From: Bacteroidales bacterium
Lineage (GTDB): Bacteria; Bacteroidota; Bacteroidia; Bacteroidales; JAAUTT01
DNA length: 64,000 nucleotides
NCBI GenBank assembly: GCA_038320545.1
Contig: JBBQEI010000004.1
Span: 75,613 to 139,612, forward strand
Direction: 5' to 3'
Made by a program: the position numbers and the translations under genes. Under the pieces are notes generated by a model. The model was not told the origin of the DNA and did no database searches. It saw only the letters and a list, made by a program, of their open reading frames with translations. The number at the start of each line of letters is the position of its first letter. The first letter of the stretch is position 1. Of the stretch, positions 6,704 to 50,416 are shown piece after piece.

Positions 6704-6724
6704 TCACAACTAATTAGATTGCAC

Positions 6725-14938: not shown

Positions 14939-17701
14939 ATGGATTTACTAAAACTGCTTAAGGACCAACTTGGAAAGCCTTATTACGACCTTGAATATCT
15001 TTTGAAGTGTTTTCAGGAGGTACTTAAGGAAACAGGTGAGCAAAGACTTGCTGATTCTGTTCCTTGGTTGAACGCGAATTCGGCCAGCGAAAACATCAAC
15101 ATAATAAAGCAATTGCAGGTTTACTCTATAAGCTATCAACTTTTAAATATTGTTGAAGTAAATGGAGCCGTTCAAAACAGGCGTAAAATTGAAGCAACGG
15201 GTTTATCAAAAGTTAATGGATTATGGGCTAATAATCTGGAGATTTTAAAAAATGCAGGGTTCAGCGAAAATGAAATTTTATGCAATCTTGCCAACATCCA
15301 GGTTGAGCCTGTTTTAACAGCACATCCTACAGAAGCCAAAAGGCCTGAAGTGTTGGAACAATATCGCAAGCTGTACCTGCTGATTGTGAAAAAAGAAAAC
15401 AGCATGTATACTCCTGTTGAGCAGGATGAAATCAGAAACGACATCAAACTTATTTTGCATAAACTCTGGTTAATTGGCGAAATTTTTATCGACAAACCTG
15501 ATATCCGGCTGGAGTTGGATAATGTTCTTCATTATTTAAAAAATGTTTTTCCCGAGGCAATATCAATTCTCGATAAAAGATTAATGCAGGCATGGATAGC
15601 GGTGGGGTTTGATCCATCGGGAATCAACTCAACTAATTTTCTTCCACGAATTTCGTTTGGAAACTGGGTTGGTGGCGACCGTGACGGGCATCCGTTAATT
15701 TCGGCTGAAATAACTGGCGAAGCTCTTTCTATCATGCGAATGAATTCGTTTGAACTGATCAAAGCCAAATTGATGTCGCTTTCACGAAATCTCAGCTTTT
15801 ATGTTCCTATGGATAAAGTATCAGAAGAGCTAAAAAGCAAGGCTAAAAATTATTCAAAATTTGCAGGAGATCATCTGGAAGAGATTCAAAACCGTTATCA
15901 GCGTGAAGCCTACCGATTTTTTGTAAATCTGTTGATATACAGGCTTCCTGTCGATTTTAGCCAGGATAAAGTGATTTGGCTGGAGGAACATGAAGGGAGT
16001 TACCGGCATTCGGGTGAACTTATCGATGATTTAATAACTCTTCAAAATGATTTAATTGATTTTGGAGCTTCCCAGGTCGCCTGGAACGATGTTCGCGACC
16101 TTATCCGCTTCATTCAAAGTTTTGGCTTTCACCTGGCAAAACTGGATATCCGCCAGAATAGCCAATTTCACGATTTAGCTATGGACCAGCTTTTGGCTGC
16201 CGCTGGGATGGATATTATTTTTTCAGAACTTTCATTTGAAGAAAGGCGAAAGTTTATATTGGCTGAAATGAATTCACCAAGGCCGTTCACCAATAATTTT
16301 TCAAATCTGCCTTACGAAGCATCATCGGTAATAAGCGTATTTCACGTATTGAAGCAACATATTGAAAAATATACCACAACATCGCTCGGGAATATAATAA
16401 TTAGTATGACACGCGATGCGACAGACCTTCTGTTACCTTACCTTTTTGCCCGGGAAGCAGGAATGCTGGAAATTGAAGAAAAAAATTTTATGATGCCCCT
16501 GCATGTGGTTCCACTATTCGAAACTATTGGCGATCTGGAGCATTCTACCCAAGTGATGGACGATTATTTGTCATTTCCTGTCGTAAAGAAATCGTTGGAA
16601 TTACAACAAAAAAACAGACGCAGAAATTGGCTCCGGCAGGATATCATGATCGGTTACAGCGACAGCAATAAAGATGGTGGAATACTCGCCAGTGCCTGGA
16701 ACCTTTATCTTGCCCAGGAAAAACTCAGGGACATGGCTGTTCGCCAAAATCTTAAAATCAGGTTTTTTCACGGAAAAGGCGGAACGATCAGTCGTGGAGC
16801 CGGACCTATGCATTGGTTTTTGAAAGCACTGCCACAAGGAAGCCTTTCAGGACATATCCGTTTAACTGAACAAGGGGAGATCATTGAAAAAAAATACGCC
16901 AATCTTTTAAATGCTGCTTATAATCTCGAATTATTAGTTTCGGGAACTTTGGCAAATGCCATGATACATGCTTCGCGAAAGGAGTTAAGACCTCATGAAG
17001 GTTCTGATATTCTTGGTTTTCTTTCAGAGCGCAGTGTTGATTTTTACAAAGAACTTACGCGGCATTCATATTTTATGGACTTCTTTTCTCAGGCAACTCC
17101 AATCGATGCCATTGAATCGAGTAAAATTGGCAGTCGTCCGAGCCGTCGCACCGGACAAAGAACGTTGCAGGATTTACGTGCAATTCCCTGGGTATTTAGC
17201 TGGAGCCAGACACGTTTTAATATAACAGGCTGGTATGGCACCGGATCGGCTTTGGAAGAGCTGCATCAGCAGCACCCCGAAAATTTTGACCGTTTGAAGA
17301 AAATGGTAAAATACGATGAGGTGATCAGGTATATTTTTACAAATATTGACACCAGTCTTGCAGCTACCGACGAAAAAATTATGGGCATGTATGCATCATT
17401 GGTTGAAGATGAACAATGTAGGAAAACCATATTTGGAATGATTGTAGCTGAACTTGAGAAGCTTCGGAAAATGATGGGGATTTTGCTTGAAAAACCGATG
17501 GAAGTGCGGCGCAAGAACCATTATTATTCAACCATGTTAAGGGCAGAACCTTTGGAAAAACTGCATCAATACCAAATAACACTCTTACGGCAATGGAGAG
17601 GATTCAAAAAAAACGGATCCACTGCTGAAGGGGATATTACATTGATTGAGCTTTTGAAAAGTATCAATGCCATTGCCAATGCAATAGGAAATACAGGATA
17701 A
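14939..17701 (+). CDS. ppc: Phosphoenolpyruvate carboxylase
   Basis: VLTAHPTEAKR, GYSDSNKDGG, FHGKGGTISRGAGP and the invariant C-terminal ...NTG. Confidence 0.95.
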   Translation: MDLLKLLKDQLGKPYYDLEYLLKCFQEVLKETGEQRLADSVPWLNANSASENINIIKQLQVYSISYQLLNIVEVNGAVQNRRKIEATGLSKVNGLWANNLEILKNAGFSENEILCNLANIQVEPVLTAHPTEAKRPEVLEQYRKLYLLIVKKENSMYTPVEQDEIRNDIKLILHKLWLIGEIFIDKPDIRLELDNVLHYLKNVFPEAISILDKRLMQAWIAVGFDPSGINSTNFLPRISFGNWVGGDRDGHPLISAEITGEALSIMRMNSFELIKAKLMSLSRNLSFYVPMDKVSEELKSKAKNYSKFAGDHLEEIQNRYQREAYRFFVNLLIYRLPVDFSQDKVIWLEEHEGSYRHSGELIDDLITLQNDLIDFGASQVAWNDVRDLIRFIQSFGFHLAKLDIRQNSQFHDLAMDQLLAAAGMDIIFSELSFEERRKFILAEMNSPRPFTNNFSNLPYEASSVISVFHVLKQHIEKYTTTSLGNIIISMTRDATDLLLPYLFAREAGMLEIEEKNFMMPLHVVPLFETIGDLEHSTQVMDDYLSFPVVKKSLELQQKNRRRNWLRQDIMIGYSDSNKDGGILASAWNLYLAQEKLRDMAVRQNLKIRFFHGKGGTISRGAGPMHWFLKALPQGSLSGHIRLTEQGEIIEKKYANLLNAAYNLELLVSGTLANAMIHASRKELRPHEGSDILGFLSERSVDFYKELTRHSYFMDFFSQATPIDAIESSKIGSRPSRRTGQRTLQDLRAIPWVFSWSQTRFNITGWYGTGSALEELHQQHPENFDRLKKMVKYDEVIRYIFTNIDTSLAATDEKIMGMYASLVEDEQCRKTIFGMIVAELEKLRKMMGILLEKPMEVRRKNHYYSTMLRAEPLEKLHQYQITLLRQWRGFKKNGSTAEGDITLIELLKSINAIANAIGNTG

Positions 17702-17789
17702 AAATCGAATCTTATGGCTTAATTTGTAAAAGTAAATCGCTTGAAAAAGTGGTTAAAGCAAAGTATTTAAAAGAATCATAAATAAAAAC

Positions 17790-18494
17790 ATGAATCCACA
17801 TATTAGAAAATATTTCCCTGAAGCAAAGAAATGGTCAGAGGTAACAAACGATTATGTAGAGAGAATTATTTCGGAATCGGCCATTACAAAAGAAAAAATT
17901 TTATATGCCTCCTGTATTTGTCCGGATGAATTAAACTACACAGCCACAAATTTTAATGGGCATTTCCGGCAGGGGTTTTATTTAGGCGGATTGAGCGGTA
18001 TTCCGTATACCGGAAAAACGGGAATGGCAGCTTATGCCAGTCATGTTCCAGCAGATGGGGCTTCGTTTATTTATTTTGGTCCTCATGTCGGAATTAGTAA
18101 TGATGGAAGCATTGGCCATGTAATTAGGGAGCATCAGCATGTGCATACATTTAGTTGTGGTTCGTTAATTTCAGTTCTGGAAAGAATGCGCCGTAATCAT
18201 ATTTTTGACTGGTCGTCGAATAATTTTGAAGATTTGCAGGCCAGGGTAATCGAGAAATTGTTGCACAATCACAACGATCGCATTTTTAGTGCGGAAAGCG
18301 ATGTAATGGAAGCCTTGAGAATATTATATAATGTTAGCGAATGTTTGTTACGACAATTTATAATTGAAAACCGTGCATTATTTGCCTCACCGCATATATT
18401 CCTATTGGGAGGTGTAATCATCAATACCGATTCGGGAGAAGAGAATTATGCTGAAATTTGGTCGTTTGAGCATCTAGATTTAAGAAAAGTGTAA
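17790..18494 (+). CDS. Hypothetical protein, possibly an LCIB-type beta-carbonic-anhydrase-like protein
   Basis: SCICPDELN (Cys44, Asp46), GPHVG (His99) and FSCGS (Cys123) form a Cys/His/Cys pattern with a CxD start. This resembles what I recall of the zinc site of the LCIB/LCIC family. Not verified by a search. Confidence 0.4.
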   Translation: MNPHIRKYFPEAKKWSEVTNDYVERIISESAITKEKILYASCICPDELNYTATNFNGHFRQGFYLGGLSGIPYTGKTGMAAYASHVPADGASFIYFGPHVGISNDGSIGHVIREHQHVHTFSCGSLISVLERMRRNHIFDWSSNNFEDLQARVIEKLLHNHNDRIFSAESDVMEALRILYNVSECLLRQFIIENRALFASPHIFLLGGVIINTDSGEENYAEIWSFEHLDLRKV

Positions 18495-18550: not shown

Positions 18551-18575
18551 TTATTATACTTTATAAAATTAATTG

Positions 18576-18583
18576 TATTTTTG
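18576..18583 (+). promoter_or_regulatory. Bacteroidota -7 promoter box (TAnnTTTG)
   Basis: TATTTTTG ends 20 nt upstream of the ATG at 18603. This argues against the TTG start at 18573, which would overlap the box. Confidence 0.35.
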
Positions 18584-18602
18584 CATAAAAAAGAGCCATA
18601 AA

Positions 18603-18821
18603 ATGCACTTTGAAGGATTGATTATAATAATAAAACAACGCAGGGTTGCATTACAAGTCACCCAGGAATCCTTAGCTCAATTATCAGGTGTAGGCTTAAG
18701 AACCTTAAAACAGTTTGAAAGTGGGAAAGGCAATCCAACACTTCAAACACTACAAAAAATAGCAGATGTGTTGGGAATGGAAGTGAGTTTAAAACTTAAA
18801 AATGTAGCCCGTAACAAATGA
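18603..18821 (+). CDS. hipB: XRE-family HTH protein (HipB-like)
   Basis: IIKQRRVALQVTQESLAQLSGVGLRTLKQFESGKGNPTLQTLQKIADVLGMEV is a Cro/C1-type HTH. Its end overlaps the next gene by 4 nt (ATGA). Confidence 0.8.
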   Translation: MHFEGLIIIIKQRRVALQVTQESLAQLSGVGLRTLKQFESGKGNPTLQTLQKIADVLGMEVSLKLKNVARNK

Positions 18822-19144
18822 GAAAGGCAAAAATACTATTTAAGGACGAGGAAGCTGGTGTATTAACCCAACATGATGATGGCTCGTTTACATTCAGTTA
18901 TAATGATGCCTGGATGGCAGATCATAACAAGCCTGATATCAGTCTTACCTTGCCTAAAATTGGACAGAAGTTTCATTCAAAATACTTATTTCCATTCTTT
19001 TATAACATGCTTCCTGAAGGATCTAATAAGGAAGTAGTTTGTAAACTTAATAGAATAGACCCGACAGATTACTTCGGATTACTCATAACTACTGCAAAAT
19101 ATGATAGTATTGGTGCAGTTCGGGTATTAAAAACAGATCAGTAA
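18818..19144 (+). CDS. hipS: Stand-alone HipA N-terminal subdomain protein (HipS-like)
   Basis: 108 aa. EEAGVLTQHDDGSFTFSYNDAWM...ISLTLP...FFYNMLPEGSNKE...DSIGAVRV follows the HipA N-terminal (couple_hipA) pattern. Confidence 0.7.
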   Translation: MRKAKILFKDEEAGVLTQHDDGSFTFSYNDAWMADHNKPDISLTLPKIGQKFHSKYLFPFFYNMLPEGSNKEVVCKLNRIDPTDYFGLLITTAKYDSIGAVRVLKTDQ

Positions 19145-20131
19145 TGAGTTTACCTGAAATAAAATATTGTCCAGGTACTTTAGCTAAAGGATTTAATACC
19201 TATAGCAGAACTTGTTTGAATAGAGTTTTTCAAGGGAAAACCGTATATCATGTATTGCCATACGATTCACCGGCATCGAATCCTGAAACAGATGAACTTT
19301 TTGAACAAAACAGAAAATGTATCTCAATCTCGGGAGTACAGGAAAAATACTCTGTATTGCTTGAGAAAAATAAGTTAAGACTTACAAATGAAGGTGAGCG
19401 TGGAGCTTATATTCTGAAACCTATTCCCGGTACTGGCAAAAAGCCGGACCAAATGCCAGCTAACGAACACCTTACAATGCAAATGGCGCGTCAGATATAT
19501 GGAATAGAAACAGCTGAAAATGCATTAATTTTTTTTTAAAAACGGAACTCCGGCATATATAACCAAGCGATTCGACGTTAAAGAAGATGGTTCAAAACTT
19601 GCACAGGATGATTTTGCTTCATTGGCGGGCAGGACCCCTCAAACCCATGGAAAACATTACAAGTATTTGGGGAATTATTTGGAATTATTTCAGTTAATGA
19701 AGACTTATTTAGCTACTTACAAATTAGATGCACCTAAACTTCTGAAAATACTCGTTTTTAATTACTTATTCTCCAATGGAGATGCTCACTATAAAAACTT
19801 TTCCATACTTGAAACATCAATGGGAGACTATAGATTGAGTCCAGCATATGACCTCTTAAATAGTCGCATTCATATAGAAGATAAAGACTTTGCATTAGAT
19901 GATGGATTATTACCGGGAAATTTAGCTCAAGGGGAAATTAGGATACAATTTTCCAAACTCGCAGAGAATGCAGAAATAAGTGAGAAAATTTTTTATGATA
20001 TTATAACGTTAATGTTATCAAAATCGGATATTGTTGAAAAAATGATAAAAGCTTCGTTTCTTGACGATTCTACAAAAAAAAATTATTGGCAGTCTTATAA
20101 TGGACGATTAAAACAAATATTAAAACCATGA
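19144..20131 (+). pseudogene. hipT: HipA-family Ser/Thr kinase toxin lacking the N-subdomain (HipT-like), interrupted by a +1 frameshift at a T9 run
   Basis: The frame-1 part ends ...ENALIFF* at 19539. The conserved block continues in the next frame from 19541 (NGTPAYITKRFDVKEDGSKLAQDDFASLAG...). Kinase motifs are ISISGVQEKYS (Gly-rich loop), DAHYKNFS (catalytic) and SPAYDLLNS. The T run is at 19529-19537. Confidence 0.75.
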
Positions 20132-37888: not shown

Positions 37889-38719
37889 ATGGTTAAAAAA
37901 ATCTCTATCTGGGTTCTGGCATTAATTATTACTCTTATTGCAGCTATTTACCAGCGGAAAACAGGACCAACTTACCCAAAAACATATAATATTGAAATTG
38001 GAAATGACGTTTACAAAGTTGAACTCCTTCGTACCAATGCAGGAGAAAAAGATTGTCTTCTTGAAATTCCTGTAGATGATAAGGAAGTAACAGGAAGTAT
38101 TTATTATAAACGCTATAAAACTAACGACCCTTATAAATCTACACGGCTTGTGCAGTATCGCAATAAATTATGCGGTGTATTGCCACACCAGCCACCGGCA
38201 GGAAAGCTCCAGTATTATGTTGAACTGTTAAAGGACAATAATAAGTTTAACATTGCGAAAGAAGAGCCTGTGGTGGTTCGTTTCAGGGGTGATGTGCCAG
38301 TATATATTGTTATTCCGCATGTGTTGCTGATTTTTTTAGCCATGTTTTTTTCAACCCTGAGTGGTTTATATGTAATATTTAAAAGGGAAAATTACCGTAA
38401 ATATGTTAATTGGGCCTTCTTTACCTTGTTAATAGGAGGTTTTGTTTTTGGTCCGCTGATGCAGTATTATGCTTTCGGCGAATTTTGGACCGGGATTCCT
38501 TTTGGATTTGATTTAACTGATAACAAAACACTTTTTGCATTTATCTTTTGGATTTGGGCTTTTCTGGCAAACAGAAAAAAGGCCCGGCCTGTTCCGGTAA
38601 TTATTGCTTGTGTTATGACCATTATAATTTTTTCAATACCTCACAGTTTTATGGGTTCGGAACTCGATTACAGTACAAATAAGATAAATACGGGAATGGT
38701 AATTATGAATCTTCTTTAA
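37889..38719 (+). CDS. Multi-pass membrane protein, function unknown
   Basis: N-terminal TM followed by four or five hydrophobic segments in the C-terminal half. Starts 5 nt after the peptidase gene. Confidence 0.55.
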   Translation: MVKKISIWVLALIITLIAAIYQRKTGPTYPKTYNIEIGNDVYKVELLRTNAGEKDCLLEIPVDDKEVTGSIYYKRYKTNDPYKSTRLVQYRNKLCGVLPHQPPAGKLQYYVELLKDNNKFNIAKEEPVVVRFRGDVPVYIVIPHVLLIFLAMFFSTLSGLYVIFKRENYRKYVNWAFFTLLIGGFVFGPLMQYYAFGEFWTGIPFGFDLTDNKTLFAFIFWIWAFLANRKKARPVPVIIACVMTIIIFSIPHSFMGSELDYSTNKINTGMVIMNLL

Positions 38720-41189
38720 TTTGAAGTTTTTCAAAGTGACAACCCAGCTTCCGATGTAGCTCATCAATATCAATAGGCTTGGAAATATAATCATCGCATC
38801 CTGCCTTCAGGCATTTATCTTTATCGTCCGACATGGCAAATGCTGTTTGGGCGATGACGAAAATTTCAGGATGTTTTGATTTTAACCTGCGTGTTGTCTC
38901 ATAACCATCGAGCACAGGCATTTGGATATCCATCAGAACGCCATGAATGTTGTTGTTTTCGGATAATAAACTTAACACTTCCTCTCCGTTATAAGCCCTG
39001 ATGATATTGGCCTGTGTTTTATTAAGAGCAATCTGTATCAGTTTATAATTTAAATCATCATCTTCGGCAACCAGGATGGTAAAATTCTTCCAAGCAATGC
39101 TTTTTTGTGGTAAACTGTATTCATCATTGGAAGTCTTAATTAATTCGGAAACTTCATAATTATTTGCCGGAATGGTAAAATAAAAGCAAGTACCTTTCTC
39201 TTCCAACGATTCAAGCCACATTTTGCCACCAAGTAATTCAGTTAAGTTTTTCGAAATCGACAAACCTAAGCCTGTTCCCTTGTAAACCTTAGAGGAATTA
39301 TCGTTTACCTGTCCAAATCTTTTAAAAACAAGTTCGGTTTTATCTTTTGGAATCCCCGATCCTGTATCGGATACATAAAACTGAAAGAAACCATCCTTGA
39401 TTTCAAAACCAAACTCTATTTTTCCCTTTTCGGTAAACTTAAATGCATTGTCGAGCAGGTTTGTGAAAATTTGCCTTAATCGGGTAACATCAGTACTGAA
39501 AATGTAATTACGGGCAATGCAATCGGTTTTTACCTGCAAAACTATATCTTCTTCTTTACACTTCTTATGATTTTGAAAATAAACAAAAAGTTCGTTTAAA
39601 ACGGAATTTACATAGCAGGCACTTTCAGTCAGCTTTAATTGTCGGGCTTCAATTTTGGCTGTATCAAGAATATCGTCTATTAAGCGTAAAAGGCTGATAC
39701 TGCATGAATTTATGTATTTCACATATTCGTTGCGCTGTGTTCCTGATATATCCGGATCTTTTAAAAAAGTTGAAAAAGCCAGGATTGCATTCATGGGTGT
39801 CCTGATTTCGTGCGACATATTCGCCAGAAATGCTGTTTTTAATTTATCAGCCTCTTCAGCAGCGATGCGTTCAAACATCTCCAGTTTTAATTCATTGGTT
39901 CTCTGCTTTACTTCATCCTCCAAAATTTCCTGGTGTTTTCGTATTTGATTTTCAGCAAGTACTTTCTTACGATAAGCCCACACTAAAAAACAAAACATGA
40001 AAATCAATAAAATTAGTGCAACAAGGTAAATCGAATTCTCCCTCATCTGAGCTTTAAGCTGAATCTCTTTTTTTTGTATTTCAAAATCTTTCAGTTCACC
40101 ATGAAAGAGTGCTTCCGCTTCAGCCAGCCTTTTCTTCGATTCTTCATTTGAGATGGAATCCTCAATTTGATTTGCAGCTTTATAGTATTTTAATGATCCC
40201 TGATAATTGCCCATTTCTTCCAACAACGATGCCATTTCTTCATTAACAAATGCTAATAAATCGAGTATCTGCACCGAATCAGCATACATGATACTTAATT
40301 TGTAATGCGTTATCGCCGTCTCATTTTTATTTAACCGCCGGTATAATGAAGCTAAATTATCGTGGATATAAGCGAGGCCGGTACGTGAATTAATTTTTTT
40401 AAAGTATAACAGGGCCTTGTCATAATGCTTTAAAGCTTCCTGAAATTTAAGAAGACGTTCATAGGCGATTCCAAGATTATTCTCAACTGAGGCTATATCT
40501 TCCGGATCGTTGACCGAGATAAAGATCTTCAGGGCTTTATTGTAATATTCAATAGTTTTAGGATAATTTTCCTGATTTAAATATACTACGCCAATGTTTT
40601 GCAAAATAGCAGCCTGCTTTGGTTCATTTTTTAAAAATTTATATAATTCCAACGACTTTTTATAATATGCAATGGCAAGGCTGTCCCTTCTTTTGTCCGA
40701 TTCAATAATTCCTATGTTTTGAAGTACTTTAGCCTGTCCATAGATATCCTTTTTTTTCTGGTAAAGTTTAAATGCTTCCAGGTAAATTTGAATTGCAGTA
40801 TTAATATCCGAAGTGCAATCGTAGCAGCGGGCAATGTTAAATTTTAAGTCGGCAAGCAATAAGCTATCATTAATAAAATAAGGATTCGATAAACATAATT
40901 GGAAATCGCTCAACGCTTTATTATAATTTTCGAGGTATGAGTTTGCTCTGGCTTTTATATATAGTACTTTACAATAATCGAATGAATTTGTGTTTTTATT
41001 GAATGTCTTTAATAGCTGTTCAGCTATTTTGAGCGAACTATCGGGAGCTGTGTCGAGCAATTGATCAGCCCTTTTTATGAGTTGGCTAATGTTTTCGGAA
41101 TCAACTTCATAAATATTTATATCATTCCCCGAAACATTGCAGGTAAAAATATTAATAAATAATATTACTAATATTGAATAATGATTCAT
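38703..41189 (-). CDS. TPR-repeat hybrid sensor histidine kinase / response regulator
   Basis: N-terminal signal and TPR repeats, a TM (IYLVALILLIFMFCFLVWAY), HisKA (FLANMSHEIRTPMNAI), HATPase (SDTGSGIP...GTGLGLSI) and a receiver (ILVAEDDDLNYKLI...DIQMPVLDGYE). Confidence 0.9.
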   Translation of the reverse strand: MNHYSILVILFINIFTCNVSGNDINIYEVDSENISQLIKRADQLLDTAPDSSLKIAEQLLKTFNKNTNSFDYCKVLYIKARANSYLENYNKALSDFQLCLSNPYFINDSLLLADLKFNIARCYDCTSDINTAIQIYLEAFKLYQKKKDIYGQAKVLQNIGIIESDKRRDSLAIAYYKKSLELYKFLKNEPKQAAILQNIGVVYLNQENYPKTIEYYNKALKIFISVNDPEDIASVENNLGIAYERLLKFQEALKHYDKALLYFKKINSRTGLAYIHDNLASLYRRLNKNETAITHYKLSIMYADSVQILDLLAFVNEEMASLLEEMGNYQGSLKYYKAANQIEDSISNEESKKRLAEAEALFHGELKDFEIQKKEIQLKAQMRENSIYLVALILLIFMFCFLVWAYRKKVLAENQIRKHQEILEDEVKQRTNELKLEMFERIAAEEADKLKTAFLANMSHEIRTPMNAILAFSTFLKDPDISGTQRNEYVKYINSCSISLLRLIDDILDTAKIEARQLKLTESACYVNSVLNELFVYFQNHKKCKEEDIVLQVKTDCIARNYIFSTDVTRLRQIFTNLLDNAFKFTEKGKIEFGFEIKDGFFQFYVSDTGSGIPKDKTELVFKRFGQVNDNSSKVYKGTGLGLSISKNLTELLGGKMWLESLEEKGTCFYFTIPANNYEVSELIKTSNDEYSLPQKSIAWKNFTILVAEDDDLNYKLIQIALNKTQANIIRAYNGEEVLSLLSENNNIHGVLMDIQMPVLDGYETTRRLKSKHPEIFVIAQTAFAMSDDKDKCLKAGCDDYISKPIDIDELHRKLGCHFEKLQIKEDS

Positions 41190-42738: not shown

Positions 42739-43614
42739 ATGCTAAAGAGGTTAACGAATCATCAGATAGATAAGGAAAAATGGGATTTGGCAATTTTAAA
42801 TGCCGACGAGTCTCATGTTTATATGTTATCCTGGTATCTTGACATTGTATCTCCCGGATGGGAATGTATAGTTTTTGATGATTATAAAATAATATTTCCT
42901 CTTCCTGTTAAATACAAATATTGCATTCCATATCTGGTTCAACCCCTACTCTGTCAGAAATCAGGAATTTTTGGAATTGGTGTAAACGATAAAATAGCCA
43001 AGGCGTTTTATAAAAAAATATTCTGGGAATTTCCATATTTTAATTTAAAGCTATCGAATGCTTTAGGTCTGCACAAAACAAAATACCTGAACGGAAAGAT
43101 TAATTATACTCTGGACCTGACCGCTGATTATGATATTCTGGTAAAAGATTATAAAAAAAACACGCTTCGCAATATTAAAAAAGCTAAAAAAGTCAATCTT
43201 TTCCTTTCAGAATGCGATGTAAATTCATTTTTAGCATTTGGCAAAACCTACATTCAAGGAATAAATGAAAGTGAATATATAACATTTACTAGTTTGGTAT
43301 TAAAAGCTTCAGAAAAGGGAAAAACACATATTCTGAAAGTTTGTAACCAGGAAGGTGAAATACTGGCTGCAGCTTGTTTTCTCATCTGGAACATGCAAAT
43401 CGTTTACCTTGCAGGAGCTAGTTCTCCTCAGGGCAAAGAATTATTGGCCATGCATCTTATTTTCGATGGTTTAATTAAAGAATATGCTGCTACCGGATGG
43501 TTACTTGATTTTGAAGGATCAATGATTTCAGGAGTTGCTAAATTTTTCAGGGGTTTTGGTGGAAAAGCTTCTTACTATTACCACGTGAAAAAATACTTGT
43601 TTTTTTACCGGTAA
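42739..43614 (+). CDS. FemAB/GNAT-like acyltransferase-fold protein (tentative)
   Basis: A 291-aa ORF whose size and C-terminal pattern (ILAAACFLIWNMQIVYLAGASSPQGKEL...DFEGS) resemble FemAB-type GNAT proteins. Confidence 0.35.
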   Translation: MLKRLTNHQIDKEKWDLAILNADESHVYMLSWYLDIVSPGWECIVFDDYKIIFPLPVKYKYCIPYLVQPLLCQKSGIFGIGVNDKIAKAFYKKIFWEFPYFNLKLSNALGLHKTKYLNGKINYTLDLTADYDILVKDYKKNTLRNIKKAKKVNLFLSECDVNSFLAFGKTYIQGINESEYITFTSLVLKASEKGKTHILKVCNQEGEILAAACFLIWNMQIVYLAGASSPQGKELLAMHLIFDGLIKEYAATGWLLDFEGSMISGVAKFFRGFGGKASYYYHVKKYLFFYR

Positions 43615-44823
43615 TCACATTATTTGTAAATACACTTCCTTTAAAAATTTCTCTTCCAGCAGTCGAGCAATCCTTTTTGCGACTGTTCGTCGTATTTCCA
43701 GCTCACGAGGCACTTTTGGATCGTGATGCGCTGGATTTATTCGTGTTCCGATTAAAAAATGAATTTCGTCCGATTCGAGTAACATGTTTACTACCTGATG
43801 AGCTGGTCCTTTTCCGGTTGGCATGGCAGGATTATGATCTTTTAAAAGGTCGTGAACTTTACTTAAAGTCAGAATTCCTTCTGTGAGCAGGTCAATACCT
43901 TCCATAAACGATATGGGAGGCAGATCAGGATCATCAAATTGTTGGCCTTCTGTTATCTTTAAGCCTAACTGGCTCGAAATAATATCCCCTGTGGTGGCGC
44001 CGCAAATAATTTTTTGTCCATTAAATTCTTTTACAATTTTCGCCATATCGGAATCACTAAACTCTTCATATGGCGGACCACTGCATAACAAAAGCCGTCG
44101 TGGATGCCGAAGGTAAATAGTGGCACACGAAATGTCATCTTCAGCTTTATAGTTATCGTTCTGGTAAGCCAGGCTGACAAGTTTTCCTGCAATTTTTCTC
44201 GCCGAAATGGATGTATCGGTATCGATTAATTTACCAAGGTAAGTTTTTATGTTTTCCAATCCCCAGCCCACAGGATATTTGACTGTTCCGGTACCCGACT
44301 GATAAATTCCATCGCTGAAAAATATTATCCTGTCCTCGAGCTGCGATTTAAAAGAACAAGTCCTGATTTCTTTACCCGCATTTTTATGGCTGGTAAGAAT
44401 AATACATTGCCACTCGGGTTCAAATATTTGGTTGCCACGATAAATCAGGCATTCAGGGTTACCATATTCAAGAATATGAGTTGTACCATCATATTCAATA
44501 TTAACAATAGTGAAGGTGGAATAACTAAGGTTACGATCGCTGCATACAGGCAGTGTATTCATAATTATTTCGGCAATGGTATTCGGGTCCTCATGTTCCA
44601 TGGTAAACCGCATGGCCATCGTTGAGGTTAAGGTTGCTAATATATTGGCTTTCACTCCATGTCCCATTCCATCCGAAAGAATGGCTATTACCCTGTTTTC
44701 TTCTGGGATACGTTTAGAAAGAAATACATCGCCACAAATTCTTTCACCATTATGGTTCCGTTGCTGACAATGAACTTCAATATAAAAACCTTCGATTACA
44801 ACTGTTTTAGTTGTTTTTACCAC
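43615..44823 (-). CDS. SpoIIE/PP2C-family protein phosphatase with an unassigned C-terminal domain
   Basis: ICGDVFL, ILSDGMGHGVKANILATL and FFSDGIYQSG. The GTG start at 44821-44823 immediately follows the stop of the upstream hydrogenase-like gene. Confidence 0.8.
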   Translation of the reverse strand: MVKTTKTVVIEGFYIEVHCQQRNHNGERICGDVFLSKRIPEENRVIAILSDGMGHGVKANILATLTSTMAMRFTMEHEDPNTIAEIIMNTLPVCSDRNLSYSTFTIVNIEYDGTTHILEYGNPECLIYRGNQIFEPEWQCIILTSHKNAGKEIRTCSFKSQLEDRIIFFSDGIYQSGTGTVKYPVGWGLENIKTYLGKLIDTDTSISARKIAGKLVSLAYQNDNYKAEDDISCATIYLRHPRRLLLCSGPPYEEFSDSDMAKIVKEFNGQKIICGATTGDIISSQLGLKITEGQQFDDPDLPPISFMEGIDLLTEGILTLSKVHDLLKDHNPAMPTGKGPAHQVVNMLLESDEIHFLIGTRINPAHHDPKVPRELEIRRTVAKRIARLLEEKFLKEVYLQIM

Positions 44824-46704
44824 TTATAATGAGTTTTTAGTGTTCTTATCTTTCGAATTGTTTCCTTTGTACATTTCTGAAATTGAATTTAGCATTTGCT
44901 CGGTGTCGGCAGCGGTTTCGCCAAGTAAAAAACCAATTTTCTGAACCATTTCAAGGTTTTTGCCAATTACTTCGTCAATGCGGTTTAAAACTTCATCTTT
45001 TCTTAATTCAGGTGAATTTATATCAGCTATTACAGCACCTACTATTGAATTTTCCCGGATAGAAAAAACGGAAATATTATAAAGCTCTTCATTGTAATGA
45101 ATATCACGCTTTTGTATGTCTTCTCCGTTGAGTAATACATACGAAAAAAGATTGTAAATATTAAAAGGTAACAGTTTTTTTATATCAGCTCCGGCGAGGC
45201 CCGGAATTATTTCGTTTATTTCGGCCGCATCTGGTCCAAGAAATTTTATAAAACTTTGGTTCACTTGTAATATTTTTAATTTTTCGTTCACAATTACAAG
45301 GCACGAAGGTAATTTTTGCAACATAGTTTCCATGGTTACAAAGGCTTGTTTAGCTAGTTGTTGTTCGCGCCGGGCGGCATTTTCCGATTCCCTGAGAGCG
45401 TCTTTTGTTTCTTCAAGTTGCTGGTTTATTTGCTGTAATCGTTGAATTGAATTTTGCCTGCTGCGAACTGCATGGGTAATACACATTTCAGTTGTAGTTA
45501 ATCCTTTCACGACATTAGTGGCAAAATCGTAGCATGAATTGTATCCACAGGCACCACACCCCTGGTTGTCGCTGAATTCATTTTTGCCCATTTCTTTCAT
45601 TACCTCCCTGATTTTATCTTTTGGAGGTTGCGAAATACGCTGATCGTCGGCAATAAACGATGCTGAATAATCTAACTGGAGGTAACGCCTGGTTTCTTTT
45701 TCCCATTCCCGTTTATTGAAATTACTCATTCGCTTATTGGCATAATTTACAACAAGCGTACGGCGGAAAAACCTGTCGCCACCACGAGAAGTCCCGGGTC
45801 CCATAATGCAGCCATGATCGTAAAAAATATTGAAGTGCCTGTTTATAACCAGCGGATGATCCGAAAACTCTTTCACAGCCTTAACCATCGAACTTCTGCC
45901 TTCAGCTGTATAAACAGTACCGGTTAAAAGTTCTTCACTAATGTTTGCAGCTTGCAAAAACCCTGTGCTTATTGGATAAAGTGACCCTTTTCGTCCATAT
46001 GGAGGATCAAAATCTCCTACTTCATGTTTGCCTTCAGTAATGCCGAATTCTTTAAAAAGTTCTCTCAATTCTTTGAACGTAAGAACAGCATCAATTTTCG
46101 ATTCATCTTGATGTCGTAAGGCTTCTTTTTTATTGGCAATGCACGGGCCAATGTATACTATGCGGATATCCGGCCCATATTTCTGATGCATTACTTTGGC
46201 TGAAGCGATCATTGGGGTTACAATAGGTGCCAGATTTGGAATGAGTTCCGGGTAATATTTTTCGATGTAAAAAATGAGTGCAGGACAATTTGCAGTAAAA
46301 TAATATTTGCCTTTGTTGTTTTCAAACAGTTCAGCATATTTTTGAGCGATGATGTCGACCCCGAATGAAGCTTCATTTACATAATGAAAACCTAGTGCCC
46401 TGATCATTTCAACAAATTTACGGTAATCGGTAATGTCGGAAAATTCTCCTGAAATGCTGGGGCCAACTATGGCAACAACTTTATTGTCCGATTTTAAAAT
46501 TCTTTTGGTTTCTTCTTTAGAATTATGATAAACTACTGCTTCCGGGCCGCATACTGTAACACAACTACCACAGCCAATGCAACGGTTATGCAATATTTTT
46601 GGAAAGTCGTCCGTTAAATCCATTTTAACAGCTTTAACAGGACAAACCCTGACACATGCATGGCATTTTACACATTTGGTATTGATAATTTCAATCAAGT
46701 TCAT
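44824..46704 (-). CDS. Sensory [FeFe]-hydrogenase-like protein (2x 4Fe-4S ferredoxin motifs, H-domain-like region, Cx2Cx4Cx16C, PAS-like C-terminus)
   Basis: CVKCHACVRVCP and CIGCGSCVTVCG. TANCPAL / GPCIANKKE / DHGCIMGPG sit at the positions of H-cluster motifs L1/L2/L3. CGACGYNSC-x16-C, a coiled coil and PAS-like LVIVNEKLKILQVNQSFIKFLG follow. Confidence 0.75.
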   Translation of the reverse strand: MNLIEIINTKCVKCHACVRVCPVKAVKMDLTDDFPKILHNRCIGCGSCVTVCGPEAVVYHNSKEETKRILKSDNKVVAIVGPSISGEFSDITDYRKFVEMIRALGFHYVNEASFGVDIIAQKYAELFENNKGKYYFTANCPALIFYIEKYYPELIPNLAPIVTPMIASAKVMHQKYGPDIRIVYIGPCIANKKEALRHQDESKIDAVLTFKELRELFKEFGITEGKHEVGDFDPPYGRKGSLYPISTGFLQAANISEELLTGTVYTAEGRSSMVKAVKEFSDHPLVINRHFNIFYDHGCIMGPGTSRGGDRFFRRTLVVNYANKRMSNFNKREWEKETRRYLQLDYSASFIADDQRISQPPKDKIREVMKEMGKNEFSDNQGCGACGYNSCYDFATNVVKGLTTTEMCITHAVRSRQNSIQRLQQINQQLEETKDALRESENAARREQQLAKQAFVTMETMLQKLPSCLVIVNEKLKILQVNQSFIKFLGPDAAEINEIIPGLAGADIKKLLPFNIYNLFSYVLLNGEDIQKRDIHYNEELYNISVFSIRENSIVGAVIADINSPELRKDEVLNRIDEVIGKNLEMVQKIGFLLGETAADTEQMLNSISEMYKGNNSKDKNTKNSL

Positions 46705-46856
46705 GTGGCGGTTATTATTTAAAGCTAATATATTATCTACATATCAACAATGTCAATAAAAAAGGCATGATTAAAACTCATAAAATTTTATAGTGAACTA
46801 TTTGATCGAAATATACAAATATTAACTTTACCCCAACTTAACCAATTTTAGAAACG

Positions 46857-49145
46857 ATGAAGAAGACCTTTGTATTTTTACTTTTCGTTCATTTAACTGC
46901 AGCATTCTCATTCTCGCAAAGTTACGATCGTAAATTTATACGTGAATTTACCATTAAAATTGATACGGTACATTATGAATTATCGAAAAATACAATTGTT
47001 CAGAATAATGAAAGCAGGTTGTATTTTAATTTTCAAAGGGAAGACGATGTTTGCGAATTAAATCTTTATCCTGCTGATAAAGAAAAAGTTAGTAATTTGA
47101 AATTATTAGGATCATCCGATTATATTCAGCTCGATTCCATTGTTTTTGTTCATGATGAATATTACAGGATTCGGTTGCGGTTTATAAATTTGTTCAAAAG
47201 CCAGTTTATAAATTTGACTTTCTCCGCCACAATTGTCGGTGCTGAAACTCCTGTATTGGAAGAAATAAAGTTATTGCCATATACAAAAACCAAGGTGGCT
47301 TTTGGACTGATAAGCGATGAATTATTTTTAGGTGAAGAAAAAGTATTTGAACTTACTACAAATAATCTTAAAAATATCAGGTTAACGAACGAATGGGTCA
47401 GCGACCGGGATATAAATTACAGGGTATTGGAGGAAAATGGTAAACTTATGGTGCACCTTATCCCCAATTTGCCCGATATCAGGGAGGTTAAAATTAAACT
47501 TCAAACCTACATTCCTAATTTGGTGGACGACAAAAAAATAGTGTACGATTTGCCCGAAGTCACTCAGAGTTTTAAAGTAAAAACGAGTCGTTTGGCATTT
47601 CTTAACCTGGATAAACAGGAATTAACCTTCGACGAAAAATCTAAAATAAATGGAATCGAGGTTCAAATGGACAATAACCGGCAGTTGGTAATTGGCAAAA
47701 CGTACAGGCTCGAAAATCAGGAACAACCAGGGGGTGCTTTAATTGCCGAATTGTTTACAAAAAGCAGTTTAACGAACGACAAGGTATTGTGCATCTTCCG
47801 TCCGTTTAATTTTCACCGGAAAACTGAAGGATATTTATACATAAAGGAAGGCGACAATTCTAAGTTTATAACCAATTGCGACATTACTCCTAAAACTACA
47901 ATTACTAATATAATGGTTATGCATGAGGGTGAAGATTGGTCGACGAACCTGAATGTTTATCCCGGCGAAACGGTGAATGTAAAAATGGAAGGCGAAGGTT
48001 TACATAAAGCACGTTTTCATTGGGAAGATCTACTGGATTTGACATCTGATACTGTTATCCGCAGCGAAACCAGCTCTTCATTCCAGCTTAAAGTGCCCAT
48101 AAATATTACCAAGAAAAAAATAAACCTTTATAATGGAGCCAATAATACTGGTACTACACTCAATGTAAGAGAGTACCAGGTACCAAGAAAAATGGATTAC
48201 ATAAGCCTGAACTTTGGTACTGGTAACAGGGTACTTTCTTCCATTGCACCAATTATGATCCAACGAAGTACCATTAACGACATAACTCTAAACTTCGATT
48301 ACAATAAAATTGATTCGGAAAGTAAGTTATATGGAAAGCAATATTTTGATATTGATGTAAAAATTCTGGGAAAAAGAGGCGAGTTAATCGAAATGAAAAA
48401 CATCAAAAACATTTTGGTTTGTCCGGGTGAAAACTCTCCGCGATTTGTTTATTACAAAGATAAATCGGCAGTTTCGACGTCCATTAGTCTGAATAGTCTC
48501 ATTGGCTACAAAACCTACAATATGGAGGATTTTTCCAGGGTTCAGTTAAATTTTCGGAATCCCGATGAAAAATATAATGGTTCGGGATACGAAAAACAAA
48601 TCGAAATTGTATTGCAGCGCCCTGTTATATTCGATATTGATGTTTCATTCCCGGCAGGTTTGATGATACAGAACCTGGGAAAAACCAAAGCTGAAAGAGA
48701 AAGCATTGAAAAATATGGTACAGATAAAAATTTATATAACCAAGAAAAAATAGCCTATACAAATGAATTGGAAATTTGGAATAACAATCATGTAGGGCCA
48801 AAACCTGTTTTGTCAATGGAAGAACCCGTTGAACCTCAGAAAGCGAAGTTTACCGATAATTTGGGAGGTGTGAGCCTTGCCTTAATTGCTCAGTTTAGTT
48901 TTCCCGATGCCGAAAAGGTAGGACGATTAAAGCCTTATCGTTTGGGAGCAGGTTTTTTGGCTATCAATACTTTCAACTTCAGCGATAATGCTAAAAGAGA
49001 TCTGGCAGCAGTTATTCTGGCCAGTTTATATCCCATAAAACCAGGCCGAATTTTCAACATGCCTATTCATATCGGAATTGGTTATAAATTTCAGGATGCC
49101 CGGCCATTTCTTATGCTAAGCCCTGGAATAGGGGTGAGGTTTTAA
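46857..49145 (+). CDS. Large secreted hypothetical protein, possibly outer-membrane anchored
   Basis: Signal peptide (MKKTFVFLLFVHLTAAFSFSQ). 762 aa with no family I recognise. The C-terminus is rich in alternating hydrophobic residues and ends ...GIGVRF. Confidence 0.6.
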   Translation: MKKTFVFLLFVHLTAAFSFSQSYDRKFIREFTIKIDTVHYELSKNTIVQNNESRLYFNFQREDDVCELNLYPADKEKVSNLKLLGSSDYIQLDSIVFVHDEYYRIRLRFINLFKSQFINLTFSATIVGAETPVLEEIKLLPYTKTKVAFGLISDELFLGEEKVFELTTNNLKNIRLTNEWVSDRDINYRVLEENGKLMVHLIPNLPDIREVKIKLQTYIPNLVDDKKIVYDLPEVTQSFKVKTSRLAFLNLDKQELTFDEKSKINGIEVQMDNNRQLVIGKTYRLENQEQPGGALIAELFTKSSLTNDKVLCIFRPFNFHRKTEGYLYIKEGDNSKFITNCDITPKTTITNIMVMHEGEDWSTNLNVYPGETVNVKMEGEGLHKARFHWEDLLDLTSDTVIRSETSSSFQLKVPINITKKKINLYNGANNTGTTLNVREYQVPRKMDYISLNFGTGNRVLSSIAPIMIQRSTINDITLNFDYNKIDSESKLYGKQYFDIDVKILGKRGELIEMKNIKNILVCPGENSPRFVYYKDKSAVSTSISLNSLIGYKTYNMEDFSRVQLNFRNPDEKYNGSGYEKQIEIVLQRPVIFDIDVSFPAGLMIQNLGKTKAERESIEKYGTDKNLYNQEKIAYTNELEIWNNNHVGPKPVLSMEEPVEPQKAKFTDNLGGVSLALIAQFSFPDAEKVGRLKPYRLGAGFLAINTFNFSDNAKRDLAAVILASLYPIKPGRIFNMPIHIGIGYKFQDARPFLMLSPGIGVRF

Positions 49146-49212: not shown

Positions 49213-49449
49213 CAATTCCCCCACAGGCAGGTAATTTCCTTTTCTCCGTTATTCCTGGTTTATGCCGGAAGTGTGAATAATGTAATTTTATCCGGTTTTT
49301 TTGTAAAACAAATTTCTCTAATCTTTCTGACCTTTGCACTATTCTAGCCTTAATAAATTGAAGATTAAATTCGAATTCAAACAATAAAGGTGAGAAATCA
49401 AAAGTAAGCTTAATCAAAAACATTGTTGGATTGTTATTCAATAAACCTT

Positions 49450-49932
49450 ATGAATATGATTAAAACAAACATTGAAATTTCCGATGCGAACCTGAAAGAA
49501 TCGGCAACATTGTTAAATACGCTTCTTGCCGATGAATTTGTGCTTTACACAAAAACAAGGAATGCTCACTGGAATATCCAGGGCCCGGGATTTTATGAAC
49601 TTCATAAGTTTTTTGAAGACCAGTATGATGAATTAGCCGGAATGATTGATGAGGTAGCAGAACGGGTGAGACAATTAGGCCATTTTGCTATAGGCACTTT
49701 AAAAGATTTTATAGCCATTACCCGAATGAGCGAGAGTAATTATGAATTCAGCAATCAGCAACAAATTGTCCGTACGCTATTGGAGGATCATGAAACAATA
49801 ATCCGGATTTTACGCCGTGATGCCGGGCAGGTATCAGACAAGTACAAAGATATGGGAACTTCTGATTTTATGACCGGATTAATGGAAAAGCATGAGAAGA
49901 TGGCATGGATGTTACGCGCTCATTTAAATTAA
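49450..49932 (+). CDS. dps: Dps-family DNA-protection / ferritin-like protein
   Basis: LNTLLADEFVLYTKTRNAHWNIQGPGFYELHKFFEDQYDEL...DEVAERVRQLG. I prefer the ATG at 49450 to the upstream non-ATG start. Confidence 0.9.
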   Translation: MNMIKTNIEISDANLKESATLLNTLLADEFVLYTKTRNAHWNIQGPGFYELHKFFEDQYDELAGMIDEVAERVRQLGHFAIGTLKDFIAITRMSESNYEFSNQQQIVRTLLEDHETIIRILRRDAGQVSDKYKDMGTSDFMTGLMEKHEKMAWMLRAHLN

Positions 49933-50100: not shown

Positions 50101-50140
50101 AAGCCTTTATTTTTTTATTAACCTTATAAACAACATACTT

Positions 50141-50416
50141 ATGAGTGGTGGTAAAGTATTATTAAGCGTATTGGCAGGAGTAGCTGCCGGTGCTTTGGTT
50201 GGGATTTTGTTCGCACCTGATAAAGGTTCGGAAACCCGCAGAAAATTATTGGAAACAGGAGAAGATTTGGCAAATACTGCCAAAGAAAAATTTGACGATG
50301 TGGTAGGTTCAGTTAACGAACGTATCGATAGTGTTAAAGAAAGTGTTAAAGATACTATTGGTAATGTAACCAAAAAAGCTGGTGACGAAGCCAAGGCACG
50401 TTCAGCATCTGTCTAA
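50141..50416 (+). CDS. YtxH-domain protein
   Basis: LLSVLAGVAAGALVGILFAPDKGSETRRKL followed by a helical, charged tail. Confidence 0.8.
   Translation: MSGGKVLLSVLAGVAAGALVGILFAPDKGSETRRKLLETGEDLANTAKEKFDDVVGSVNERIDSVKESVKDTIGNVTKKAGDEAKARSASV

Follow-up and report, generated by a model that had tools for sequence, protein, structure and literature searches.

A phosphatase-linked, putatively sensory [FeFe]-hydrogenase gene pair with an altered H-cluster ligand set in a Bacteroidales genome

We examined a 64,000-nucleotide (nt) stretch of a Bacteroidales genome (positions 75,613 to 139,612 of contig JBBQEI010000004.1), hereafter the window, which carries two adjacent genes resembling the phosphatase-linked, putatively hydrogen-sensing [FeFe] hydrogenases. 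The upstream gene, referred to here as the sensor gene (44824..46704, minus strand), has an ATG start and a TAA stop (44824-44826) and encodes a HydS-like protein of 626 amino acids (aa) with Pfam matches to Fe_hyd_lg_C, Fer4 and FeS. The downstream gene (43615..44823, minus strand) has a GTG start (44821-44823) and encodes a 402-aa phosphatase with a SpoIIE match. Both open reading frames (ORFs) were found where an initial annotation of this DNA had placed them. The sequence across the junction (TCA TTA TAA GTG GTA, stop and start codons at 44821..44826, minus strand) bears out its statement that the sensor stop directly abuts the phosphatase start, with a gap of 0 nt. All features of the pair described below lie on the minus strand.

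The sensor begins with two ferredoxin-type [4Fe-4S] motifs, CVKCHACVRVCP at residues 11-22 (46639..46674) and CIGCGSCVTVCG at residues 42-53 (46546..46581), both read from the translation and accompanied by Fer4 family matches in Pfam (E = 1e-8 to 1e-7). In the homolog alignment the four cysteines of the second motif (C42, C45, C48 and C52) are invariant, as are C11, C17 and C21 of the first; C14 is lost in some relatives. Residues 75-305 (45790..46482) form a domain homologous to the catalytic domain of [FeFe] hydrogenases, the H-domain. It is matched by Pfam Fe_hyd_lg_C (E = 1.9e-41, residues 75-282) and by HydA and CpI sequences from the PDB (E = 1e-27 to 1e-19), and NCBIfam TIGR04105 matches residues 16-305. 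The NCBIfam scores are far under all of the catalytic-subfamily cutoffs (179.6 against 450, and 116 against 406). After the H-domain, and before the PAS-like region, comes a Cx2Cx4Cx16C [4Fe-4S] motif (45481..45558), formed by the invariant residues C383, C386, C391 and C408 and overlapping a match to FeS (PF04060, E = 8.7e-8, residues 383-409); the motif is one named in the literature (PMC8163306). The initial annotation had listed the two ferredoxin-type motifs, the H-domain-like region and the exact Cx2Cx4Cx16C spacing, and each of these is present.

The remainder of the sensor comprises a helical linker (residues 412-455, 45340..45471), a PAS-like domain (residues 456-561, 45022..45339) and a conserved C-terminal tail (...KIGFLLGE.AA.TEQMLNSI..., residues 562-618, 44851..45021). 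We compared these with 150 representatives of the wider family, chosen at 50% identity. The linker, where the initial annotation had proposed a coiled coil, is an insert of ~40 residues relative to canonical HydS and was matched by profile in just 11 of the representatives. The tail is the most conserved stretch of the sensor alignment and was found by profile in 99 of the 150, canonical HydS included. The window protein taken alone gives sub-threshold matches to PAS_9, PAS and PAS_8, with a PAS_9 score of 18-20 bits against a Pfam cutoff of 27. Among 16 family members, PAS_8 matched 10, PAS_9 matched seven and PAS matched five, and in canonical HydS-type proteins of ~575 aa the PAS region was matched by a profile of residues 455-561 (E = 1e-18 to 1e-30). 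The PAS-like C-terminus proposed in the initial annotation therefore stands on the matches of family members and canonical HydS; the window protein by itself falls under the Pfam cutoff.

The phosphatase has two domains. The PP2C/SpoIIE catalytic domain (residues ~11-239, 44107..44793) contains the SpoIIE match (PF07228, E = 1.4e-14, residues 42-233). The AlphaFold2 (AF2) model of the phosphatase has a predicted local distance difference test score (pLDDT) of 84.9, and Foldseek matched it to structures of SpoIIE, RsbX and RsbU (E = 5e-15 to 1e-11); the fold search with the whole protein returned PP2C matches only. The SpoIIE/PP2C identity proposed earlier was thus recovered from both sequence and modelled fold. 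Across the phosphatase family, where the mean column identity is 73%, residues D32, D51-G52, D171-G172 and D229-D230 are invariant in two alignments, and we take the aspartates to be the PP2C metal ligands. From these Asp/Gly motifs and the SpoIIE/RsbX-like fold, the phosphatase is predicted to be catalytically competent.

The second domain (residues 240-402, 43618..44106) is the additional C-terminal domain that the initial annotation had left unassigned. It is a real α/β domain, modelled on its own by AF2 with a pLDDT of 88.5, and has no Pfam match even at E<10. Its most conserved stretches include CGATT, LPPxS, TEGILTL, SDEI and LELEIRRT. No solved structure matched it at E≤0.001; the best PDB matches are methylglyoxal-synthase-like (E = 4e-3, template modelling score 0.42-0.53), and because these are weak we claim no fold family for it. 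The same domain was detected by profile in the partner phosphatases of canonical HydS proteins (E = 2.6e-70 and 2.5e-53), and it is a hallmark of HydS-partnered phosphatases across the family.

This combination of domains has been described before. The M2f or group C PAS-type enzymes have two N-terminal [4Fe-4S] motifs, an H-domain that lacks the proton-relay cysteine, the Cx2Cx4Cx16C motif and a PAS domain (PMC8163306, PMC13104023), and HydDB subgroup C3 is designated 'phosphatase-linked (putative)' (PMC5037454). In the group C system of Ruminococcus albus, a subunit with an H-cluster and a PAS domain accompanies a putative Ser/Thr phosphatase subunit (PMC6776011). Two canonical representatives of ~575-582 aa are ~31-34% identical to the window sensor, and each overlaps a downstream 394-410-aa SpoIIE gene, beside hydrogenase genes. 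Homology between the window sensor and canonical PAS-type HydS runs over the full length and takes in the FeS motif, the PAS-like domain and the tail, the helical insert being the main distinction of the Bacteroidota clade. The cassette of a sensor and a PP2C phosphatase with its own C-terminal domain is old and widespread. Architecture and pairing together support assignment of the window pair to the group C3, phosphatase-linked, putative sensory type, in keeping with the initial annotation.

Homologs of the sensor number more than 5,600 in the database. The 120 listed, which are 54-84% identical to the window protein, are mostly full length (~620 aa), the rest being shorter, N-terminally truncated calls, and those that are named come from Bacteroidales or other Bacteroidota metagenome-assembled genomes. 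In a scan with one genome per species, relatives of the sensor were found in at least 449 species genomes; the best 80 of these all belong to Bacteroidota, with the cultured Perlabentimonas gracilis among them. The module is common, not rare, in Bacteroidota and, because of this abundance, the Bacteroidota context alone is unremarkable. We analysed 86 related loci (individual loci are given below as L numbers) with home-built profiles; 79 had enough sequence for linkage to be judged and 39 had full 9-kb flanks. In 78 of the 79, the gene that directly follows the sensor on its own strand is the phosphatase. Neither of the outcomes named in the initial annotation as refuting was seen: the Fe_hyd_lg_C match is highly significant, and the linkage is kept in related genomes.

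The residues around the H-cluster of the window sensor differ from those expected. HMMER alignments to PDB hydrogenases, made with the single sequence or with a profile, both end before the third H-cluster motif (L3). We therefore used a global MAFFT alignment of the window sensor, the catalytic HydA and histidine kinase (HK)-linked HydS paralogs of its relatives, and CpI, an alignment of the kind suggested in the initial annotation. The C-terminal 145 residues of the CpI reference are identical to PDB 1FEH/3C8Y, and the rest agrees with the CpI residues in the HMMER alignments. All three motifs could be mapped. In L1 (TANCP, residues 137-141, 46282..46296), CpI C299 corresponds to Asn139 and C300 to Cys140, with the HMMER alignment to HydA as further evidence. 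In L2 (GPCIANKKE, residues 186-194, 46123..46149), M353 corresponds to Gly186, C355 to Cys188 and K358 to Asn191, which is followed by an invariant Lys192. In L3 (FYDHGCIMGPG, residues 294-304, 45793..45825), M497 corresponds to Phe294, C499 to Asp296 and C503 to Cys299, with a one-residue deletion that gives D-x2-C in place of C-x3-C. Three of the four cysteine ligands of the H-cluster (C140, C188 and C299) are therefore kept, and the fourth is an aspartate.

Some of these changes are expected of a sensor. The absence of the proton-relay cysteine (N139) and the replacement of both pocket methionines (G186 and F294) have been described for the sensory type (PMC8163306, PMC10055695); Thermotoga maritima HydS (TmHydS) has A131 at the proton-relay position and G177 at the M353 position (PMC10055695). 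The substitutions at C499 and K358 are of another kind: sensory enzymes are reported to conserve the H-cluster's cysteine ligands and those residues that hydrogen-bond the [2Fe] cofactor (PMC10055695), and K358, together with P324 and Q325, contacts the distal CN ligand of the H-cluster (PMC10147833). Within the literature open to our search, we found no description of a naturally altered ligand set of this kind.

We compared the occupancy of these positions between the close homologs and the wider family. Among the 120 closest homologs listed, the C300, C355 and C503 positions are 100% cysteine, and the C499 position is Cys in 42, Asp in 41 and Asn in 37. Over the 86 genomic loci, which are mostly at species level, the C499 position is Cys in 67, Asn in 10 and Asp in nine. 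The wider family has the signature A-C-G-C-K-K-L-C-C, and of its 147 aligned representatives 144 have Cys where CpI has C499. Just one of the 120 close homologs listed has Lys at the K358 position, compared with 118 of the 150 broader representatives. Both the C499 substitution and the loss of K358 are thus specific to the Bacteroidota clade. Lys192, one residue past the K358 position, may or may not compensate for the lost lysine. A neighbour-joining tree reconstructs Cys as ancestral at the C499 position, with a minimum of eight changes over 212 tips; the Asp state and the Asn state are each typical of a single large, coherent clade, and the Asp-state clade reaches down to ~59% identity. These states are stably inherited and do not represent errors.

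One relative goes further. In P0241 (L088:5903-7768, 621 aa, 51% identity) none of the four H-cluster cysteines is left (SNDPV, GPDIASK and FYGN--SLTGPG), while both ferredoxin motifs, the Cx2Cx4Cx16C motif, the PAS domain and the tail are retained. Its locus contains Rex and a small 2Fe-2S gene, with hydABC and the phosphatase both absent, and resembles what would be left after deletion of a hydrogenase locus.

Within the window's own group of relatives the H-domain is under purifying selection. In comparisons of the window with its relatives, synonymous sites are saturated, so that only the ranking of the nonsynonymous rate (dN) and a few regional ratios of dN to the synonymous rate (dN/dS 0.02-0.16) can be read. 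The dN is lowest in the H-domain (~0.10), as against 0.14-0.19 in the linker and PAS regions, and this ranking shows strong constraint on the H-domain even in a subclade without a neighbouring hydrogenase.

In most of the related loci the surroundings of the pair are those of a hydrogenase locus. HydB lies within 10 kb in 32 of the 39 fully flanked loci and an HK-fused HydS paralog in 29 of the 39, and gene-by-gene inspection of three relatives showed a trimeric hydrogenase operon of the HydABC type next to the pair. When the ORFs around all 86 loci were clustered without bias, the recurrent neighbours were the phosphatase (85 loci), a small 2Fe-2S protein of ~85 aa (72), HydC (68), HydB (65), a response regulator (52) and Rex (50). 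STAS and RsbW-type genes were not among the recurrent neighbours. The small 2Fe-2S protein is a thioredoxin-like, HydC-like protein of ~82-91 aa (PF01257) encoded immediately upstream of the sensor (for example, L001:9690-9938 and L002:9729-9977), and may serve the sensor as a dedicated redox partner. In Perlabentimonas gracilis a module of the Cys type adjoins hydABC (L040).

In the window's subclade the pair is separated from hydABC. Among the four relatives closest to the window (78-83% identity, both ORFs intact), L004 and L008 show no hydrogenase within 10 kb, and L005 and L009 show none in their partial flanks. Neither the window, at 46705-46856, nor its subclade has the small 2Fe-2S gene. 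What the subclade has kept, besides the pair, is a divergently transcribed gene for a protein of ~750 aa. In the window this gene (46857-49145, plus strand) encodes 762 aa with an N-terminal hydrophobic segment and no Pfam match; the closest relatives that were inspected have it in the same place (L004, 751 aa; L005, 760 aa), and in the window it is followed by a Dps/ferritin-like gene (49423-49932).

HydABC is absent from five of six Asp loci compared with two of 29 Cys loci, but the Asp cases are close kin and amount to essentially one event. L003, an Asp variant, and L001, an Asn variant, still adjoin hydABC. Given the single event and the retention of hydABC by L003, we claim no causal link between the Asp state and the loss of hydABC.

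Two of the neighbouring HydA subunits, supposedly catalytic, are themselves unusual. The HydA at L001:5144-6865 is atypical, reading ISGNCPAW and VTSCTARKFEA (Asn for C299, Thr for M353, Ser for P354 and Arg for K358), and the HydA at L003:13486-15264 has TSCSP, with Ser at the C300 position. At the canonical locus L091, from outside the Bacteroidota clade, the pair is followed by a 477-aa monomeric Fe-hydrogenase-like gene (L091:4462-5895) and by a second phosphatase in which TPR repeats are fused to SpoIIE (L091:6017-8197).

In the window the sensor and phosphatase ORFs share one reading frame across the single TAA. In relatives the spacing between the two genes ranges from about -10 to +326 nt, as overlaps or gaps: the genes overlap in L001, the phosphatase frame differs from the sensor frame in L005, and the phosphatase ORF is again in the sensor frame, 3 nt past the sensor stop, in L004. 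Because the gap or overlap varies and L005 uses another frame, the shared frame in the window is a coincidence and the in-frame TAA no recoding signal. No sensor-phosphatase fusion of ~1030 aa occurs among the 120 listed close homologs of the more than 5,600; the one family representative of ~1035 aa ends in a histidine-kinase tail, not a phosphatase. The identical 402-aa, GTG-start product has been recorded independently in two other assemblies, on short contigs, and an exact-sequence lookup of the 626-aa sensor returned no record. Readthrough or fusion across the in-frame TAA was rejected on account of the frames, gaps and overlaps of the relatives together with the lack of fusions among the listed homologs.

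With a 0-nt gap and no minus-strand terminator-like site between the two genes in the terminator scan, we infer that sensor and phosphatase are co-transcribed. The best sigma-70-like match upstream of the sensor (TTGACA-18-TATATT, 46727..46756) agrees with the consensus at 11 of 12 positions and is the single good site there; it is weak evidence for a promoter, since sigma-70-like sites in the region are no commoner than in shuffled sequence and the consensus differs from that of Bacteroidota promoters. Promoter and terminator scan counts were at or below those of shuffled sequence. A scan for Rex operators gave seven matches in the window against nine expected by chance, with none in the intergenic region at 46705-46856.

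Taking these observations together, we lean modestly towards the view that sensor and phosphatase are co-transcribed and make up a single signalling unit, of the putative sensory [FeFe]-hydrogenase type known as group C3. The sensor would carry two N-terminal [4Fe-4S] clusters and a low-turnover H-domain, whose [4Fe-4S]H subcluster would be held by Cys140, Cys188, Cys299 and, replacing the fourth cysteine, Asp296; one more [4Fe-4S] cluster would lie C-terminal to the H-domain, ahead of the linker and the PAS-like domain. Hydrogen, or a redox poise set by hydrogen, would shift the state of the H-domain and the iron-sulfur (Fe-S) relay. By way of the region around the C-terminal cluster, then the helical linker and then the PAS-tail region, this shift would reach a bound PP2C partner and alter its activity, with the partner's C-terminal α/β domain the likely element for docking or regulation. 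The partner would then dephosphorylate a phospho-Ser/Thr protein encoded elsewhere in the genome.

A laboratory precedent exists for the aspartate ligand. In CrHydA1, of the four cysteines of [4Fe-4S]H, the second and third alone tolerate replacement (PMC5855289). The third, C362, was equated with CpI C499 by its order and by the Cx3C/Cx2C spacing. The C362D variant keeps [2Fe] incorporation with <2.5% activity, barely reduces protons and loses reversibility (PMC5855289), and slow, irreversible hydrogen oxidation is just what would be wanted of a sensor. Because C362D still binds [2Fe] and oxidises hydrogen almost exclusively, an Asp-ligated H-cluster, and with it a hydrogen sensor, is plausible for the window protein.

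Several observations weigh against the reading of the pair as a hydrogen-sensing signalling unit. The lysine that contacts the CN ligand is lost across the whole clade, and the position of the fourth cysteine is occupied by Asn, a poor cluster ligand, in about a fifth to a third of the clade. The C362D precedent explains neither the Asn clade nor the missing lysine, and the CrHydA1 mutagenesis set had no Asn variant (PMC5855289). The sensor scaffold can evidently persist without an H-cluster, because P0241 has lost all four cysteines. The 64 kb contain no hydrogenase or maturase gene, nor does any lie within 10 kb of the pair in its closest relatives, and no conserved substrate, STAS protein or Ser/Thr kinase was found near the pair. 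The PAS score of the window protein alone is sub-threshold. Finally, in the group D enzyme TamHydS the C-terminal cluster is unresponsive to hydrogen (PMC13104023).

The alternative that draws most on these points, and that we rank as the main rival, is a hydrogen-independent Fe-S redox sensor. The H-domain would here lack [2Fe] and hold only [4Fe-4S] clusters, one of them with an Asp-ligated or open site, and what the protein signals to its PP2C phosphatase would be ferredoxin or NAD(H) redox poise, or else oxygen or some other oxidant, so that the input would differ and the downstream logic would be unchanged. We consider this possible but on balance doubtful. The two altered positions, which are near-universal elsewhere in group C, the survival of the other domains in P0241, the absence of maturase genes from the window, the detachment of the window's subclade from hydABC together with its lack of the small 2Fe-2S gene that 72 of 86 loci have, and the TamHydS result would all be accommodated. 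On the other hand, no part of the protein is more conserved than the H-domain, whose three remaining cysteine ligands are kept in all of the 120 close homologs listed; most members of the clade, L003 (Asp) and L001 (Asn) among them, adjoin hydABC; C362D still binds [2Fe] (PMC5855289); and P0241, from a phosphatase-less remnant locus, may be a special case that says little about the clade as a whole. A related and similarly tentative proposal is that the Bacteroidota clade has remodelled the site so that it would hold no canonical H-cluster, carrying a site-differentiated [4Fe-4S] cluster and responding to a signal other than hydrogen, and that the window's subclade would control a different regulon through the PP2C phosphatase.

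It is very improbable that the sensor gene encodes a working, hydrogen-producing or hydrogen-consuming enzyme with the phosphatase as a mere neighbour. Strong H-domain homology to catalytic HydA and CpI and the N-terminal ferredoxin-like relay clusters would fit such an enzyme, but the scores are under every catalytic-subfamily cutoff, the proton-relay Cys, both pocket Met residues, K358 and one cluster Cys are all replaced, and the protein ends in a PAS-like signalling tail and is linked to the phosphatase in nearly all related loci. The characterised members of groups C and D also have very low activity (PMC11376134).

Just as improbable is a decaying relic, in which the pair would be non-functional and drifting after the loss of the hydrogenase operon. 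The detachment of the subclade, the degenerate pocket and the remnant locus of P0241 are what decay would leave; both ORFs are nevertheless intact in the window and its four closest relatives, dN is 0.10-0.19 against saturated dS and lowest in the H-domain, the catalytic motifs and the C-terminal domain of the phosphatase are invariant, and the Asp state is stable across its clade. Least credible of all is a single fusion protein, made by stop readthrough or split by a sequencing error, as the shared frame with TAA as the sole separator, nearly repeated in L004, is set against the other frames and variable spacing of L005, L001 and further relatives, the lack of fusions among the listed homologs and the separate calling of the 402-aa product in two other assemblies.

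The rest of the window was scanned with Pfam, covering all 41 ORFs of ≥150 aa and 10 of the 11 script-listed intergenic ORFs of 75-149 aa; the eleventh (50110..50394, minus strand) overlaps a YtxH gene on the opposite strand. The gene content is that of Bacteroidota and includes SusC/SusD, components of type IX secretion and a hybrid kinase with TPRs. The initial annotation had stated that the window contains no catalytic hydrogenase, no hydEFG maturase, no STAS or anti-sigma partner and no kinase. The first three parts held, in that no hydrogenase, HydE/F/G, STAS or RsbW match was found among the scanned ORFs. The last calls for a qualification, as the window encodes a TPR-HisKA-HATPase-REC hybrid kinase (38703-41189) and a broken HipA-type kinase (18818-20131), neither of which is a conserved neighbour of the sensor-phosphatase pair. 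The latter belongs to a hipBA-type toxin-antitoxin locus (18573-20131, plus strand), with an HTH_3 antitoxin (18573-18818) and HipA split over three ORFs (Couple_hipA at 18818-19141, HipA_C at 19144-19536 and 19622-20131), and is probably a disrupted hipA.

A second SpoIIE/PP2C protein of 1053 aa, with Reg_prop β-propeller repeats and a Y_Y_Y domain, is encoded at 6719-9880 (plus strand), so this genome makes use of PP2C signalling more than once. The protein does not carry the C-terminal domain seen in the HydS-partnered phosphatase. Genes for a LuxR-type regulator and a hemerythrin-domain protein (9857-11214) lie just downstream of its gene on the opposite strand. At 14939-18494 (plus strand) a phosphoenolpyruvate (PEP) carboxylase gene (920 aa) is directly followed by one for an LCIB-type β-carbonic anhydrase (PF18599), which would plausibly supply bicarbonate to the carboxylase. 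The end of the phosphatase gene meets a convergent 291-aa gene (42739-43614, no Pfam match) at 43614/43615 with no spacer; this gene follows a DUF7033 gene, and the same layout is seen in ENA contig L006.

Putative hydrogen-sensing [FeFe] hydrogenases are routinely counted in gut, rumen and sediment metagenomes, and to our knowledge none of them has a demonstrated signalling mechanism or output. That the sensor-phosphatase class exists was already catalogued, and its occurrence in Bacteroidota is ordinary. What is new here is the aspartate at the C499 position, the clade-wide loss of K358 and the detachment of a subclade from hydABC. The sensor and a ~395-aa PP2C phosphatase with its own C-terminal domain form a fixed two-gene cassette, present in the Bacteroidota clade and in both of the canonical HydS lineages examined, which provides a minimal unit for reconstitution. 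Nature has repeatedly fixed Asp or Asn at the ligand position where an engineered Asp yields a slow, irreversible hydrogen oxidiser, so that these natural proteins let spectroscopists test how ligand exchange tunes the H-cluster for sensing. If the di-iron cofactor has instead been lost, many 'group C hydrogenase' counts from Bacteroidota-rich metagenomes would not represent hydrogen sensing. The cultured Perlabentimonas gracilis, with its Cys-type module, offers an experimental entry point.

The closest known system is group C3 itself, in which, as in the window, a sensor subunit with an H-domain and a PAS domain (PAS-like in the window) is encoded with a PP2C-type phosphatase subunit; the canonical ~575-aa members pair with a ~395-aa phosphatase that bears a C-terminal domain of the window type. 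Group C3 genes usually adjoin those of a catalytic [FeFe] hydrogenase, whereas the window has none in its 64 kb, and the window sensor further differs in Asp296, in the Asn at the K358 position and in the ~40-residue helical insert before the PAS-like domain. TmHydS, the characterised M2f or group C putative hydrogen sensor, compared through its published residue numbers and the 150 family representatives, also has two N-terminal [4Fe-4S] motifs, an H-domain and the Cx2Cx4Cx16C motif, and has a PAS domain where the window sensor is PAS-like (PMC10055695, PMC8163306). Its A131 and G177 parallel N139 and G186 of the window sensor, and the M497 position is non-Met in both. Proteins of the TmHydS type are reported to keep the cysteine ligands and the residues that hydrogen-bond [2Fe] (PMC10055695), whereas the window sensor has an Asp at one ligand position and a lysine that is shifted or lost. 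The group C1, HK-linked HydS paralogs, which adjoin the pair in L001, L002 and L040 and are lacking from the window, share the N-terminal relay, the H-domain and the Cx2Cx4Cx16C motif; they end in HisKA and HATPase instead of PAS and the tail, and they keep Cys at the C499 position and Lys at the K358 position.

CrHydA1 C362D resembles the window sensor in that Asp stands in for the third cysteine of [4Fe-4S]H (Kertess et al. 2017, PMC5855289), and its very low turnover, with hydrogen oxidised almost exclusively and irreversibly, is sensor-like (PMC5855289). It differs in being a laboratory mutant of a catalytic algal enzyme with ~20% cluster occupancy, whereas the window sensor has an altered pocket and D-x2-C spacing. 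For the phosphatase the nearest systems are RsbU, RsbP and SpoIIE, which have the same PP2C fold and whose activity is set by an attached or partner sensory domain. In contrast to these, the window has no STAS (RsbV/SpoIIAA) or RsbW/SpoIIAB gene and none recurs by the pair over the 86 loci, and the putative regulatory domain of its phosphatase is C-terminal, is α/β and has a different fold from those of the RsbU, RsbP and SpoIIE types.

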